Below, piece after piece: positions 22,317-34,096 of a stretch of DNA of 34,208 nucleotides; position 1 is the stretch's first letter; every line of letters starts with the position of its first letter. Below the pieces are notes generated by a model. That model had not been told where the DNA came from. It did not search any database and saw only the letters and a program-made list of their open reading frames with translations. The position numbers and the translations under genes are program-made. Source of the DNA: a virus (lineage: Duplodnaviria; Heunggongvirae; Uroviricota; Caudoviricetes); IMG/VR virus record IMGVR_UViG_2778261511_000013, one strand, 5' to 3'.

Positions 22317-22865
22317 ATGAAGTTAGAAGATTTCGCAGCTTATAACCGCCCTCAATCGAAGGTGTCCGATGAGAGGAAATTTCTTGATTACATTCACAGT
22401 CGGAACAGATGGGTTGAGTTTATCAAAAGCATCGATAACGCAAAGCCAGTATCAATTGCCATGAAAAATTCATTCCATAGTCAATGGGTTGAGTCTGGGG
22501 CCTTTATACGTGAAAAGATCAACGACGACTCAATTCTCCTCAAACTATTAACGCTCTTATTGCCAACATATGATGGTGACAGCCTTGTACTTTATCGGGG
22601 GGAAAATAAAGACAGGTTCGATAAAGGGCTCATTGGATTTTGCTGGACAACGGACATTTCAGTCGCCGAGAAGTTTGGTCGTGGATTGAATGCATACAAA
22701 TCACCAGGTTTGCTGTTAAGAGCTGAAGCTCCAGCCTGTTCTATATTAGCTGGCCCCAATGCCCACAGTCGTTATCTTGGTGAAAATGAGTTCACGGTTA
22801 ACCCCTCGCGTCTTTCAAACATAACCGTTATTGAAACCTATCCGGACAACTCTTTTTTCAAATGA
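22317..22865 (+). CDS. AT-rich cargo protein (182 aa), divergent from the terminase; unknown function, weak ADP-ribosyltransferase-like motif pattern
   Basis: ATG at 22317 with SD GAGGAAA; on the opposite strand to all flanking late genes; contains ..LYRGE.., ..CWTTD.. and ..GENEF.. (R / S-T-like / E-x-E); appears AT-rich by eye. Confidence 0.55.
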   Translation: MKLEDFAAYNRPQSKVSDERKFLDYIHSRNRWVEFIKSIDNAKPVSIAMKNSFHSQWVESGAFIREKINDDSILLKLLTLLLPTYDGDSLVLYRGENKDRFDKGLIGFCWTTDISVAEKFGRGLNAYKSPGLLLRAEAPACSILAGPNAHSRYLGENEFTVNPSRLSNITVIETYPDNSFFK

Positions 22866-23183: not shown

Positions 23184-23442
23184 TAGTTTGTGCTGCCCTG
23201 TTTTTCTCAAAGGTCCTGATATCAGCCTTATCCCTGTTGCACTGTGCTAACGCTGACAACAACGCAACATTCAGGTTAAGGCTGGCTCCCCACGTAAACG
23301 GGTCGGGTAAATCTGGCTGGGGTGTTTCATCCGTCAGACTGGCTGGTAACGGAACGACCGGCACCGACACGTATACCGTTCGCGTATTCGTGCAACCGCT
23401 TAACTGCGCCAGAAGGAACGATACGAACAGCGCAATCATCAT
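23164..23442 (-). CDS. Rz1: o-spanin (Rz1-like outer-membrane lipoprotein)
   Basis: Starts MMIALFVSFLLAQLSGC (lipobox LSGC), Pro-rich; begins inside the 3' end of Rz in another frame and extends beyond it. Confidence 0.6.
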   Translation of the reverse strand: MMIALFVSFLLAQLSGCTNTRTVYVSVPVVPLPASLTDETPQPDLPDPFTWGASLNLNVALLSALAQCNRDKADIRTFEKNRAAQTNGTIKR

Positions 23443-23719
23443 CCGCAACAGCCACTTTGATATCTTCCTGGGTTCTCTGTGACTCCAGTGCGATCTGCTG
23501 TTTTGCATGCTGGTTAGCCTCTATAACTGTATTGATGATTTGCAGAGATTGCAGGACGTTACTGGTAATGGCTGTTGCAGATTCAGCATTTCGTACAGCC
23601 TCATCAGCACGCTCCTTTTCGTGCTGATATTTGCTGTAGTAATGCCCGGCAGACCAGATAAAAGAACCGATGACGGTAACAAAGAAGGCAACAATAACCA
23701 GCTTATATCTCAGCTTCAT
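23327..23719 (-). CDS. Rz: i-spanin (Rz-like), not the lambda allele
   Basis: 130 aa with an N-terminal TM segment (LVIVAFFVTVIGSFIW) and helix-prone periplasmic domain; follows the endolysin. Confidence 0.7.
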   Translation of the reverse strand: MKLRYKLVIVAFFVTVIGSFIWSAGHYYSKYQHEKERADEAVRNAESATAITSNVLQSLQIINTVIEANQHAKQQIALESQRTQEDIKVAVADDDCAVRIVPSGAVKRLHEYANGIRVGAGRSVTSQSDG

Positions 23720-24179
23720 TTACCACCCCACCCGCTTCTTTAAATCGGGCAATCAGGTCACCGATTCTATGTTCATACTGACCGTAACCAGCCCCCGGCA
23801 ACGAAGCCCAGATATTGCTGCAACGGTCGATTGCCTGACGAATATCGCCGCGGTCAATCATCGGTAAAGCGCTACGCTCTTTAATCTGCTGCAGCGCTAC
23901 AGCATCCTGGCTTTCTGGAGAAAAATCTTTCAGGCCAAGTTGCTTGCGGTAGGCATCCCACCAGCGTGAAAGAAGCTGGTAGCGACCGGCTGCTGTTGAT
24001 TTGAGTTTGAGGTTTAGCGTGACAAGTTTGCGAGGGTGATCAGAGTAATCAGTGAATAGCTCTCCGCCTACAATGACGTCATAACCATGATTTCTGGTTT
24101 TCTGCCGTCCGTTATCAGTTCCCTCCGACCACGCCAGCATATCGAGGAACGCCTTACGTTGATTATTGATTTCCACCAT
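23703..24179 (-). CDS. R: endolysin (lambda R-type lytic transglycosylase)
   Basis: 158 aa; [39 protein letters not shown].. matches lambda R as I recall it. Confidence 0.9.
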
Positions 24180-24486
24180 CTTCTACTCCGGCTTTTTTAG
24201 CAGCGAAGCGTTTGATAAGCGAACCAATCGAGTCAGTACCGATGTAGCCGATGAACACGCTCGTTATATAAGCGAGATTGCTATTTAGTCCGGCGAAGTC
24301 GAGAAGGTCACGAATGAACCAGGCGATAATGGCGCACATCGTTGCGTCGATTACTGTTTTTGTAAACGCACCGCCATTATATCTGCCGCGAAGGTACGCC
24401 ATTGCAAACGCAAGGATTGCCCCGATGCCTTGTTCCTTTGCCGCGAGAATGGCGGCTAACAGGTCATGTTTTTCTGGCATCTTCAT
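24163..24486 (-). CDS. S: holin/antiholin (lambda S, class I, dual start)
   Basis: 107 aa; [39 protein letters not shown].. matches lambda S107/S105. Confidence 0.9.
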
Positions 24487-24611
24487 GTCTTACCCACAAT
24501 AAGGGGATTTGCTCTATTTAATTAGGAATAATGTCGATTACTGATAGAACAAATCCAGGCTACTGTGTTTAGTAATCAGATTTGTTCGTGACCGATATGC
24601 ACGGGCAAAAC

Positions 24612-24641
24612 GGCAGGAGGTTGTTAGCGCAGCCTCTTGCC
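24612..24641 (-). terminator. putative rho-independent terminator between the tRNAs and the lysis genes
   Basis: Minus strand GGCAAGAGG-(12 nt)-CCTCCTGCC followed by GTTTTGCC; one mismatch in the stem. Confidence 0.35.
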
Positions 24642-24727
24642 ACCCGCTTTCACGAAGGTCATGCGTAGAATGCCGCAGCGTAACTATCACTGATGAATTC
24701 ATGATAGCCAGTGGCTACGGCTCAGTT

Positions 24728-24804
24728 ATGGTGCTGGTTAACGGACTTGAACCGCTACCCATTCGCTTACAAGGCGACTGCTCTACCATTGGAGCTAAAC
24801 CAGC
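24728..24804 (-). tRNA. tRNA, anticodon UGU by manual fold (tRNA-Thr)
   Basis: GCTGGTT-TA-GCTC-CAATGGTA-GAGC-A-GTCGC-CTTGTAA-GCGAA-TGGGT-AGCGG-TTCAAGT-CCGTT-AACCAGC-A-CCA; perfect 7-bp acceptor stem, good D and T arms, encoded CCA. Confidence 0.7.
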
Positions 24805-24809
24805 ATATT

Positions 24810-24884
24810 TGGCGGGACAGCGTGGACTCGAACCACGATAAGAAGGTTAACAGCCTTCCGTAATGACCTTTATACGACTGACCC
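24810..24884 (-). tRNA. tRNA-like gene, anticodon GUU by manual fold (tRNA-Asn-like), possibly degenerate
   Basis: GGGTCAG..GAAGG-CTGTTAA-CCTTC..CGTGG-TTCGAGT-CCACG-CTGTCCC-G-CCA; good anticodon and T arms, but a T:T mismatch in the acceptor stem and a weak D stem. Confidence 0.45.
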
Positions 24885-24887
24885 AAA

Positions 24888-24930
24888 TAAAAAAAGCCAC
24901 CGTTGCAACTTAAGAGTCACTAACGGCAGC
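24888..24930 (-). terminator. tR'-like terminator downstream of the late promoter
   Basis: Minus strand GCUGCCGUU-(loop)-AACGGUGGC followed by TTTTTTTATTT; long loop, two G-U pairs. Confidence 0.45.
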
Positions 24931-24934
24931 TTAT

Positions 24935-24972
24935 GCGAATAGTGTTGCTCATTTGCTCAATGATGTCAACAC
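24935..24972 (-). promoter_or_regulatory. putative late promoter pR' and Q-utilisation region
   Basis: Minus-strand TTGACA (24969-24964) 17 nt upstream of a weak -10 (AACACT), immediately after the Q stop; canonical lambdoid position. Confidence 0.4.
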
Positions 24973-24975
24973 GTT

Positions 24976-25464
24976 CTATGCTACATGTTTAATTTTCTCT
25001 ACACGTTTCCGGTTTTTAAACGCACTATCCAGAACCGGGTAAATCATAAACAACGAGGCATTGAGGATTTCGTCAACTTCCCGTCGACAGGTTGCGAGCG
25101 ATGGTTTTTGAATGCGCCCGCCGCCCCGGCATAACATCTTGCGAGGTCTTGCGACGCGATGATAGTAAGATGCAATGGCGTGCTTGGAAGAGCCGTGGGC
25201 GTAGTAGCTGAGGAGGATGCCAAAGGCTTTCTTGTCAATGTACATGACGGAATCGACGACCTGAGAAATCAACATTCCATCATCATCATTACACATTGGC
25301 CTTGTCATAACTCTTCCCGGCTCTACGCTCTCCATGAACTTAGCTATTACGCTGCTCATGCGCTTTTCCAGACGACCTGAATAAACCCATGCGCCCCACA
25401 GTTCAAGCCAGCCATTCAGCCACTCGTGCTGTTCTTTGGTGAGGTTTAGTTCTCTTATGCCCAC
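24976..25464 (-). CDS. late antiterminator Q (non-lambda allele)
   Basis: 162 aa at the end of the nin region, directly before the pR'/tR' pair; Cys-containing C-terminal region. Confidence 0.65.
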
Positions 25465-33859: not shown

Positions 33860-33931
33860 GCGCAGCGTTACCGCATACCAATAACGCTTCACTCGAGGCG
33901 TTTTTCGTTATGTATAAATAAGGAGCACACC

Positions 33932-34096
33932 ATGCAATATGCCATTGCAGGGTGGCCTGTTGCTGGCTGCCCTTCCGAATCTTTACTTGAACGAATCACC
34001 CGTAAATTACGTGACGGATGGAAACGCCTTATCGACATACTTAATCAGCCAGGAGTCCCAAAGAATGGATCAAACACTTATGGCTATCCAGACTAA
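33932..34096 (+). CDS. cIII: CIII (FtsH inhibitor)
   Basis: 54 aa by hand translation: MQYAIAGWPVAGCPSESLLERITRKLRDGWKRLIDILNQPGVPKNGSNTYGYPD; SD AAGGAG; matches lambda CIII as recalled. Confidence 0.8.
   Translation: MQYAIAGWPVAGCPSESLLERITRKLRDGWKRLIDILNQPGVPKNGSNTYGYPD

Follow-up and report, generated by a model that had tools for sequence, protein, structure and literature searches.

The tRNA-Asn and tRNA-Thr genes behind the late terminator of a phage 21-type regulatory cassette: candidate replacements for host tRNAs

Why does a temperate phage place two tRNA genes between its late promoter and its lysis genes, and what are they for? The question is raised by a stretch of 34,208 nucleotides from a tailed phage of the class Caudoviricetes (IMG/VR record IMGVR_UViG_2778261511_000013), referred to here in its full length as the window. 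On the minus strand, the antiterminator gene Q is followed by the late promoter pR', the terminator tR', a tRNA-Asn(GUU) gene, a tRNA-Thr(UGU) gene and the holin gene S. An earlier inspection of the letters, the sequence-only reading, had listed these elements and all of them are present; it gave the UGU tRNA before the GUU tRNA, an order that is reversed on the late transcript because the genes lie on the minus strand, so that Asn comes first and Thr second. The region is a late regulatory cassette of the phage 21 type into which a portable module of two tRNA genes has been inserted, right behind the terminator. As a sequence feature, the late-control region with its tRNA pair is already known: annotation goes back to the Sf6 genome of 2004, and the arrangement is traced to phage 21. 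The function of the pair is the matter considered below.

The Q gene (24976–25464, minus strand) specifies a product of 162 amino acids that agrees with Q21 (PDB 6JNX chain P; 6P18) in every residue (100% identity, full length) and matches the Pfam family Phage_antitermQ with 87 bits. Next to it lies the late promoter pR'21 (24941–24969, minus strand), which was read from the sequence and numbered from the published C residues of the Q21 binding element, or QBE (PMC6606751). It consists of a -35 element TTGACA (24969–24964), a 17-nt spacer and a weak -10 element AACACT (24946–24941). The QBE (24946–24959, minus strand) is a direct repeat of TGAGCA, at 24959–24954 and 24951–24946, the two units being 8 bp apart. 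The subsites recognized by Q21 have been defined by structure and mutation, and their C residues lie at -21 and -13 (PMC6606751); those in the window are identical and carry the two C residues at the published positions. The same numbering sets the transcription start at an A at position 24934 (minus strand). Positions +2 to +7 read TAAGCT (within 24928–24934, minus strand), probably a sigma-dependent pause element, as judged from the -10-like pattern of A2 and T6, which is conserved between 21-type and Sf6-type leaders.

The terminator tR' (24889–24930, minus strand) is formed by a 35-nt hairpin (24930–24896) and seven U residues (24895–24889). The hairpin has a folding energy of -20.2 kcal/mol and a z of -6.1, none of 200 shuffled sequences being as stable, and it carries the tR' annotation in Sf6 too. 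The terminated leader measures ∼45 nt, and tR' ends 3 nt ahead of tRNA-Asn. With a Q that is 100% Q21 and the published QBE repeats in place, the pR'/tR' unit that had been suspected here is the authentic unit of phage 21. A generic promoter and terminator scan called neither element: pR' escaped the sigma-70 rules because only three of the six -10 positions match the consensus, and tR' because its loop and stem exceed the limits of the scan. As these rules are too narrow for a weak -10 and a long hairpin, the two misses do not count as absence. Between tR' and the tRNAs, the scan showed no promoter-like site.

The tRNA-Asn(GUU) gene (24810–24884, minus strand) is 75 nt long, with an encoded CCA end and G73; the tRNA-Thr(UGU) gene (24729–24804, minus strand) is 76 nt long, with an encoded CCA end and A73. 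ARAGORN calls both, with the anticodons UGU and GUU that had been derived by a manual fold, and Rfam family RF00005 (gathering score 29) matches both, at 55.3 bits (E 5e-11) for Asn and 61.5 bits (E 1e-12) for Thr. PGAP, which uses tRNAscan-SE, annotates the two genes in identical E. coli prophages. The sole extra match of Rfam across the whole window is the lambda cIII thermoregulator.

The GUU gene had been suspected of being a pseudo-tRNA or a decoy on account of a T:T mismatch in its acceptor stem. The mismatch is real and corresponds to U4:U69; a second one, U13:U22, is also present. These two mismatches, the decayed tRNA genes of some cassette copies and the remark in the PARIS study that effectors might be bound non-productively by viral tRNAs (PMC12409363) are what speaks for a molecule acting outside translation, for instance as a sink for a nuclease or a synthetase. 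However, the remainder of the molecule is intact. The cloverleaf is the minimum-energy fold of the sequence alone, and U8, A14, A15:U48, G18G19, U33, A37, U54U55C56 and A58 are all kept. By the identity rules of E. coli AsnRS and ThrRS, which were used for the two tRNAs, G34, U35, U36 and the discriminator G73 are all in place, next to the encoded CCA. Moreover, the U:U pair is standard in the family: it occupies 4:69 in ∼111 of the 122 tRNA-Asn copies sampled, and only five copies with another combination exist in all of IMG/VR. Scans of IMG/VR for non-U4 and for non-U69 copies revealed no copy in which 4:69 is repaired to a Watson-Crick pair, and the matches with A69 were all unrelated coding sequence and were discarded; these scans rule out that U4:U69 is a private mutation or a mark of decay. 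Diversity of tRNA-Asn is low and changes fall mostly at loop positions 20, 59 and 60, which vary in functional tRNAs, and this distribution counts against a pseudo-tRNA or decoy. The window copy is 100% identical to those of Sf6 and HK446. Furthermore, the tRNA-Thr of Bas32 has been shown to act by replacement and not by competitive inhibition (10.64898/2026.07.10.737580). A decoy is thus highly improbable, and tRNA-Asn with its U4:U69 pair is expected to be aminoacylated.

The UGU gene had been described as well formed. This is correct for its cloverleaf, again the minimum-energy fold of the sequence alone, but the molecule contains a G27:A43 mismatch and a C in place of A14. All the other tertiary nucleotides are kept; the D loop reads CAAUGGUA, which can be taken as C14 or as an A displaced by one, and position 14 varies between C and U among homologues. 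The identity elements G1-C72, C2-G71, G35 and U36 are present. Among homologues, two base pairs have changed independently and in a compensatory manner (G5-C68 to U5-A68 in five loci, A49-U65 to G49-C65 in one), and wobble intermediates occur as well, which speaks for selection on the structure. The gene is 100% identical to the single Thr(UGU) gene of HK446. In the explanation favoured here, both molecules would be functional elongator tRNAs, enlarging the AAC/AAU and ACA decoding pools at the time when late proteins are produced.

The tRNA pair is followed by a lambda-type lysis-gene leader (24487–24728, minus strand), near-identical to the lambda sequence upstream of S, and by the first late gene, the holin gene S of lambda S107/S105 type (24163–24486, minus strand), an open reading frame with a lambda-family holin annotation in an identical E. 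coli prophage. A second terminator had been proposed in front of S. A hairpin does exist at 24641–24612, but it is the hairpin of the lambda S leader: its z of -1.6, with 11 of 200 shuffles as stable, makes it indistinguishable from what composition yields, whereas the whole 242-nt leader has a z of -5.3. An intrinsic terminator is understood here as a stable, G+C-rich hairpin followed directly by at least five to six U residues; in the 24641–24607 region a G intervenes and only four U residues follow, then GCCCG. In the predicted fold these U residues make up an internal loop within a longer helix, and the stem has accumulated uncompensated changes relative to lambda, both in the window and in Sf6. 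The generic terminator scan did not call the hairpin, and the proposal of a terminator at this point is abandoned. In another part of the window, an AT-rich open reading frame (22317–22865) yields no function in Pfam, PHROGs or PADLOC.

The arrangement of Asn and Thr genes in the late leader is present in 283 of 5426 complete E. coli genomes (∼5%). It is annotated in Sf6 as 'similar to phage 21' and has been described for SfI, ST64T and phage 21. Among 120 related loci in IMG/VR, the tR' hairpin is located directly 5' of the tRNA cassette in most, and cassettes in a lambdoid context start 3 nt past the T-tract of the late-leader terminator. This placement is independent of the type of Q upstream: 40 loci have the 21 type, 48 the Sf6 type and ∼17 a lambda tR'. 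Two stand-alone tRNA-Asn copies (L015 and L088) sit elsewhere, and a few cassettes harbour a glyT-like tRNA-Gly(UCC) together with a tRNA-Thr that is a phage/host chimera or decayed.

Several phages offer close parallels. The late region of phage 21, known from the Q21 structures 6JNX and 6P18, has the same Q (100%), the same QBE positions and a short leader terminator, and comparison of this segment revealed no difference; elsewhere the window prophage is a different mosaic, with structural genes of myovirus type that resemble those of vB_EcoM and SEN34 phages. In Sf6, the region of genes 59–60 contains the same tR' hairpin, tRNA-Asn, tRNA-Thr and lambda-type S leader, at 97% identity over 446 nt, and its record (AF547987; Casjens et al. 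2004) has annotations for the promoter, the qut site, the terminator and the two tRNAs. The Sf6 Q is 86% identical, with the changes H95R and R127N at DNA-contact residues, and the promoter repeats read TTAGCCAT twice, compared with TGAGCA twice in the window. HK446 shares tRNA-Thr, tRNA-Asn and the downstream S leader in identical form but differs upstream, where a lambda-type Q, pR', 6S leader and tR' are found. The preprint on this phage speaks of one tRNA (10.64898/2026.07.10.737580); ARAGORN finds Asn as well, a gene that was overlooked in that study. The cassette region of BTP1 is 97% identical to that of the window.

Stx phages such as 933W use the same slot: ileZ, argN and argO lie between Q/pR' and stx. 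These tRNA genes, reportedly the subject of work by Schmidt et al. in 1997, have other anticodons and correspond to the rare codons AUA, AGA/AGG and CGA, codon supply being the usual explanation. For the window, the same explanation would hold that the tRNAs boost the decoding of ACA and AAU/AAC in the late burst and that defence nucleases are irrelevant. Compensation for codon usage had also been suggested by the sequence-only reading, and it depends on the reference chosen. The late genes contain 11.9 ACA and 24.5 AAT codons per 1000, 3 to 5 times the values of host ribosomal/EF genes (3.7 and 4.8), but ordinary K-12 genes equal them (10.6 and 24.1). Usage in the late genes of HK446 is similar. 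On the host side, tRNA-Thr(UGU) is supplied by one gene, thrU, which would favour codon supply, while K-12 encodes tRNA-Asn four times, which counts against it. In SfI an ACA excess relative to Shigella has been reported, although the authors saw no bias that could account for tRNA-Asn (PMC3636060). Two further observations weigh against codon supply as the whole answer: the cassette precedes unrelated sets of late genes (myovirus-type in the window, HK97-like in HK446, P22-like in Sf6 and BTP1), and supplying the Thr(UGU) of E. coli itself did not rescue from OLD, in contrast to the phage tRNA (10.64898/2026.07.10.737580). As the only function of the pair, codon supply appears rather unlikely.

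A role in the lysogen has also been put forward: the OLD preprint suggests for HK446 that the tRNA makes up for a host tRNA gene that the integrating prophage has damaged (10.64898/2026.07.10.737580). The attP of HK446 does lie in thrW, and in lysogen cultures of BTP1 the tRNA genes belong to the highly expressed loci (PMC7067206), an observation that fits working tRNAs, agrees with such a role and implies that expression may not be strictly Q-dependent; BTP1 is induced spontaneously at a high rate. However, thrW encodes Thr(CGU) and not Thr(UGU), and tRNA-Asn is unconnected to the attachment site. In addition, integration normally restores the tRNA gene from its copy in attP, and the cassette is found in combination with differing Q, integrase and late modules. 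The genes lie behind tR' without a promoter of their own, which makes them members of the late unit and argues against housekeeping in the lysogen, an explanation that is hardly to be credited.

A different picture is suggested by the anticodons themselves, as both match host tRNAs that are hit by defence tRNases: Thr(UGU) by OLD, AriB and HepS, and Asn(GUU) by AriB. The OLD protein of P2 depletes host Thr(UGU), and plasmid-borne tRNA-Thr(UGU) of HK446 restored plaquing of the OLD-sensitive phages HK97, HK542 and Bas34; resistance to cleavage by OLD has been demonstrated for the tRNA-Thr of Bas32 only (10.64898/2026.07.10.737580). Host Lys(UUU), Thr(UGU) and Asn(GUU) are the main targets of the PARIS effector AriB, which cuts at 40|41, and in tRNA-Lys the substitution U39A abolishes, A41C inhibits and U16C impairs cleavage (PMC12409363). 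Thr(UGU) is also a secondary target of HepS. At positions 16, 39 and 41, the window tRNA-Thr has A, G and G against U, U and A in the host, and the window tRNA-Asn A, C and U against U, U and C. In the region cut by OLD, after nucleotides 27–29, host tRNA-Thr reads ACU and the window tRNA reads GUC, with the G27:A43 mismatch. The phage tRNAs are ∼66% identical to their host counterparts over the whole length, so that differences at 16, 39 and 41 are to be expected and are not specific evidence of nuclease escape; those at 27–29 are likewise weak evidence.

Phage tRNAs of the proposed kind are those of T5 against PARIS and those of Bas32, T4 and HK446 against OLD; among these, the PARIS-evading tRNAs of T5 offer a comparison. 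Two of the three anticodons are common to T5 and the window; the T5 tRNA-Thr and the window tRNA-Thr share G39-C40 and a GU(U/C)GC 5' strand of the anticodon stem; there are substitutions at 39 and 41, on either side of the AriB cut, and position 16 is no longer U. In other respects the systems diverge: the overall sequences are unrelated, tRNA-Lys is absent from the window cassette, and T5 is a lytic phage with an array of more than 20 tRNA genes under their own promoters, whereas the window represents a temperate phage with two genes under Q control.

Taken together, it appears probable, if by no means assured, that the two tRNAs are Q-dependent late replacements whose sequences escape defence tRNases such as P2 OLD and PARIS-type AriB. 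RNA polymerase would start at pR' (24934) and, without Q, stop at tR' after ∼45 nt. Accumulated Q21 would then bind the TGAGCA repeats, load onto the paused polymerase and allow read-through of tR', in line with the general mode of action of Q proteins, namely termination in their absence and read-through in their presence (10.1101/651190). Expression of the tRNAs in the window prophage is, on this basis, presumably Q-dependent. Host tRNA-processing enzymes would cut the tRNAs from the late transcript, CCA being already encoded. The main advantage would lie in evading tRNA-cutting nucleases of rival prophages or satellites that destroy the host counterparts, and a greater supply for ACA codons would be a secondary benefit.

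A number of observations temper this proposal of nuclease-resistant replacements. The variant cassette that combines a host-like 3' part of tRNA-Thr with a glyT-like tRNA-Gly is expected to be nuclease-sensitive and speaks against nuclease escape. No tRNA-Lys(UUU), the chief target of AriB, was found in the 120 cassettes, and hence the pair alone should not defeat the PARIS system that has been studied. The tRNA-Thr of HK446 rescued neither lambda nor the toxicity of OLD; HK446 also possesses a protein inhibitor, Oad2, and the authors of the preprint doubt that the tRNA has an anti-OLD role (10.64898/2026.07.10.737580). Resistance of the window tRNAs to AriB, and with it the link to PARIS, is an inference only. 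Literature searches on lambdoid Asn/Thr tRNAs and PARIS led to the genome paper of SfI and the preprint on OLD and to nothing else, and no paper found in this way links the pair to PARIS.

A broader hypothesis can be advanced tentatively, with the odds rather against it: the Asn-Thr unit may serve temperate lambdoid phages as a portable cassette for counter-defence, directed against TOPRIM tRNases, namely the OLD of P2 prophages and the PARIS of P4-type satellites. U4:U69, G27:A43, the non-A14 residue and the changes at 16, 39 and 41 would then be determinants of escape, not defects, and the position behind tR' would time the supply of nuclease-proof substitutes for two targeted tRNAs to the period of late protein synthesis.

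As a sequence feature the cassette is ordinary; its current value lies in the question why phages carry tRNAs, for which it provides a test case. The set is minimal, with two genes in temperate phages under a well-understood switch; one member, Thr, is reported to counter P2 OLD, and both match PARIS targets. Should both tRNAs prove to resist nucleases, tRNA-based immune evasion would be a matter not only of large lytic phages (T5 and T4, for example) but also of common prophages, and mismatches in the acceptor and anticodon stems of phage tRNAs would no longer be signs of decay.

The late region of the window lies entirely on the minus strand and runs in the order Q, promoter, hairpin with U-tract, tRNA-Asn, tRNA-Thr, a 242-nt leader and the holin gene S. 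In the whole 34-kb window ARAGORN calls just two tRNA genes, tRNA-Asn(GUU) at 24884..24810 (-) and tRNA-Thr(UGU) at 24804..24729 (-), which score 55.3 and 61.5 bits, respectively, against Rfam RF00005 (gathering score 29 bits). They are preceded on the 5' side by a Q-type ORF of 162 aa (25464..24976, -) and followed on the 3' side by lambda-type S, R and Rz (24486..23327, -). The promoter, U-tract hairpin, two tRNA(-like) genes and further hairpin described in a sequence-only reading are all present; the order given there, Thr before Asn, is however that of the plus strand, and the transcript has Asn first. It is highly probable that these are genuine tRNAs inside the phage 21 late cassette.

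Judged by its sequence, the promoter/terminator unit is that of phage 21. Along its full 162 residues, the Q product matches the Q21 protein of PDB 6JNX and 6P18 with 100% identity. The Q21 binding element (QBE) consists of two direct TGAGCA repeats between -35 and -10, with C residues at -21 and -13 (Shi et al., PMC6606751), and in the window a -35 TTGACA (24969..24964, -) is followed by matching TGAGCA repeats at 24959..24954 and 24951..24946 (-). As the published C positions fix the numbering, +1 is the A at 24934 (-) and the -10 is AACACT, a weak element that explains why a generic promoter scan called no promoter at this site. A 35-nt hairpin followed by seven U begins at +5 (-20.2 kcal/mol, z = -6.1; 0/200 shuffles fold as well), so that the terminated leader would measure only ~45 nt; tRNA-Asn starts at +51, 3 nt past the U-tract. 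The late promoter and leader terminator (pR' and tR') proposed earlier are thus substantiated. In general, such Q cassettes show the textbook behaviour of stopping at tR' without Q and reading through with Q (10.1101/651190). The generic scan of the window detected no promoter-like site between the terminator and the tRNAs, and we infer that both genes belong to the Q-dependent late transcript.

The Q of phage Sf6 (L001 968-1493) is 86% identical to the window's Q21 (24941-25464): the first 94 residues are the same and the changes group in the part that binds DNA; among them are H95R and R127N, at residues reported to contact QBE bases. The Sf6 promoter has changed in parallel, with two copies of TTAGCCAT where the window has two of TGAGCA, a pattern that resembles a switch of specificity inside the Q21 family.

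Both tRNA genes encode CCA, and the cloverleaf is the minimum free energy fold of each tRNA alone. tRNA-Asn contains two mismatches, U13:U22 and U4:U69, the latter being the T:T acceptor mismatch already recognized in the GUU tRNA. The evidence speaks against the suggestion that this gene is a pseudo-tRNA or decoy: it keeps U8, A14, A15:U48, G18G19, U33, A37, U54U55C56, A58 and G53-C61, together with G34, U35, U36 and discriminator G73, the set that specifies Asn identity in E. coli. The copies in the window, Sf6 and HK446 align as identical; 4:69 is U:U in ~111 of ~122 sampled tRNA-Asn copies, and the other differences among them fall mostly at position 20 of the D loop and positions 59 and 60 of the T loop. 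Scans of all IMG/VR for non-U4/non-U69 copies returned five in total, two with C69, two with G69 and one with G4, and no copy with a Watson-Crick-repaired 4:69. Near-fixation of U:U and the absence of repaired copies there indicate a long-standing normal state of a conserved gene, not a recent lesion.

tRNA-Thr shows a G27:A43 mismatch and a D loop, CAAUGGUA, with C in place of the usual A14, a position occupied by U in some homologues. Compensatory double changes among the homologues, from G5-C68 to U5-A68 in five loci and from A49-U65 to G49-C65 in one, offer direct evidence of selection on the fold. The tRNA-Thr of HK446, identical to that of the window with the same C14 and G27:A43, reportedly functions in rescue assays even so.

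The 242-nt S-proximal leader (24487-24728, -) is almost identical to lambda and predicted to be unusually structured relative to shuffled controls (z = -5.3). A hairpin is indeed found here, at 24641..24612 (-), and aligns as lambda sequence, but its proposed role as a second terminator before S is not supported, as it lacks the attributes of an intrinsic terminator. The lambda stem is perfect (GGCAGGAGG/CCTCCTGCC); one stem position is A in the window and T in Sf6, uncompensated. A G and then only four U follow, the fold is unexceptional (z = -1.6; 11/200 shuffles fold as well), and the U run is predicted to form an internal loop of a longer helix.

This arrangement is already known and common. 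The Sf6 GenBank record marks promoter, qut site, tR', tRNA-Asn and tRNA-Thr under the label 'similar to phage 21', and tandem Asn(GUU) and Thr(UGU) genes 3' of Q have been described in SfI, with one or both in Sf6, ST64T, PS3 and phage 21 (PMC3636060). The 489-nt Q-to-S interval has megablast matches in 176 phage records, and 283 of 5426 complete E. coli genomes contain at least 80% of it, both tRNAs being annotated there by PGAP. The finding is real and correctly located, yet not new; of the three points of interpretation two fail, the pseudo-tRNA or decoy and the second terminator. RNA-seq of Salmonella BTP1 lysogens ranks both tRNA genes with the strongly expressed loci of the prophage, with the lytic operon starting directly after (PMC7067206); this region of BTP1 and its counterpart in the window are 97% identical. 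These data show that the tRNAs are expressed, terminator read-through in lysogens and the frequent spontaneous induction of BTP1 not being separable.

Among 120 IMG/VR loci retrieved by the Asn anticodon arm, lambdoid-context cassettes start 3 nt past the leader-terminator T-tract, two stand-alone Asn copies (L015, L088) being located elsewhere. Upstream, 40 loci have a 21-type QBE, 48 have Sf6-type repeats and ~17 have lambda tR', the remainder being of other types. In an alignment of the window, HK446, lambda and Sf6, HK446 has lambda Q, pR', 6S leader and tR'; the Asn-Thr pair sits right behind the tR' T-tract, replacing ~165 nt of lambda sequence, and lambda homology resumes immediately past the tRNA-Thr CCA and extends to S. 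The comparison identifies the pair as a mobile cassette coupled to the late terminator. The two HK446 genes, at 35097-35252 (JQ086372), are the only tRNA genes that ARAGORN finds in that genome and are not annotated in GenBank.

True tRNA decay is seen in a minority cassette type. This variant cassette, in L107 (also L096, L097 and L109) ~80-235 nt downstream of where the Asn gene starts, comprises Asn, Thr and Gly(UCC): its Thr gene is phage-type over nt 1-26 and matches E. coli thrU with 100% identity over nt 27-76, while the Gly gene matches host glyT at 74/75 positions. The chimeric Thr occurs in seven loci with a broken anticodon stem and is not called by ARAGORN. Such sequences suggest that the cassette once recombined with host tRNA genes and then decayed. 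In L015 and L088 the same tRNA-Asn stands alone between its own terminators, with U4:U69 and a slightly different T loop, in unrelated, non-lambdoid-looking contexts. In L090 the second gene, directly after tRNA-Asn, has given way to a tRNA-like sequence with Thr-type acceptor ends and a different anticodon arm (CCUUCCUAAGAAGG), which ARAGORN does not call.

Codon supply is a weak explanation for the pair. ACA and AAT reach 11.9 and 24.5 per 1000 codons in the window's late genes, 3 to 5 times the frequencies in ribosomal/EF genes (3.7 and 4.8), and HK446 late genes are alike; however, ordinary K-12 genes have matching values (10.6 and 24.1), and the same cassette precedes late modules of myovirus, HK97-like and P22-like type. 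Escape from tRNases appears to fit better. The P2 tRNase OLD depletes host Thr(UGU), Gly(UCC), fMet, Val(UAC) and Pro(UGG), cutting after nt 27-29; expressed HK446 Thr(UGU), a single gene with the window's sequence, lets the OLD-sensitive phages HK97, HK542 and Bas34 form plaques again, whereas E. coli's own Thr(UGU) does not (preprint 10.64898/2026.07.10.737580). The same tRNA rescues neither lambda nor OLD toxicity, and HK446, which also carries a protein inhibitor, is called a single-tRNA phage in that preprint, whereas ARAGORN adds tRNA-Asn. Its authors favour a lysogeny-related role, which fits poorly with the position behind tR' and with the anticodon, UGU, whereas the HK446 attachment site lies in thrW, a CGU tRNA.

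AriB, the PARIS tRNase, cuts between nt 40 and 41, beside a common U36-A-A-U39 motif, in host Lys(UUU) and Thr(UGU) and, with lower efficiency, in Asn(GUU); cleavage of tRNA-Lys is abolished by U39A, inhibited by A41C and impaired by U16C, and T5 Lys, Thr and Asn tRNAs together neutralize PARIS (PMC12409363). The window pair corresponds exactly to two AriB targets, Thr(UGU) and Asn(GUU). Positions 16/39/41 are U/U/A in host thrU and A/G/G in the window's Thr, and U/U/C in host asnT and A/C/U in its Asn, although phage and host tRNAs are only ~66% identical overall and single-position changes are expected by default. T5 tRNA-Thr shares G39-C40 with the window's Thr. None of the 120 loci has a tRNA-Lys, the main AriB target, with the pair. 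HepS of Gifsy-1 also cuts Thr tRNAs, with Thr(UGU) as a secondary target (PMC13043305). Escape from tRNases is moderately likely to be the main benefit of tRNA-Thr; that it is also the main benefit of tRNA-Asn, and that the pair is aimed at PARIS, is a more doubtful proposition.

Elsewhere in the window, an ORF of 182 aa on the opposite strand (22317-22865, +), between the lysis genes and the small terminase, has a G+C content of 42% (window, 50%). Its match is to phrog_30882, of unknown function; Pfam and PADLOC give no hit, and by eye it contains a candidate YRG...WTT...ENE pattern reminiscent of ADP-ribosyltransferase R-S/T-E motifs. At 33919-33977 (+), Rfam Lambda_thermo, the cIII thermoregulator (88.5 bits), confirms a lambda-type early left operon at the window end.

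The Asn-Thr late-leader cassette of common temperate phages may be a counter to prophage- and satellite-borne tRNases, a hypothesis for which the Thr member has preprint-level experimental support (10.64898/2026.07.10.737580).
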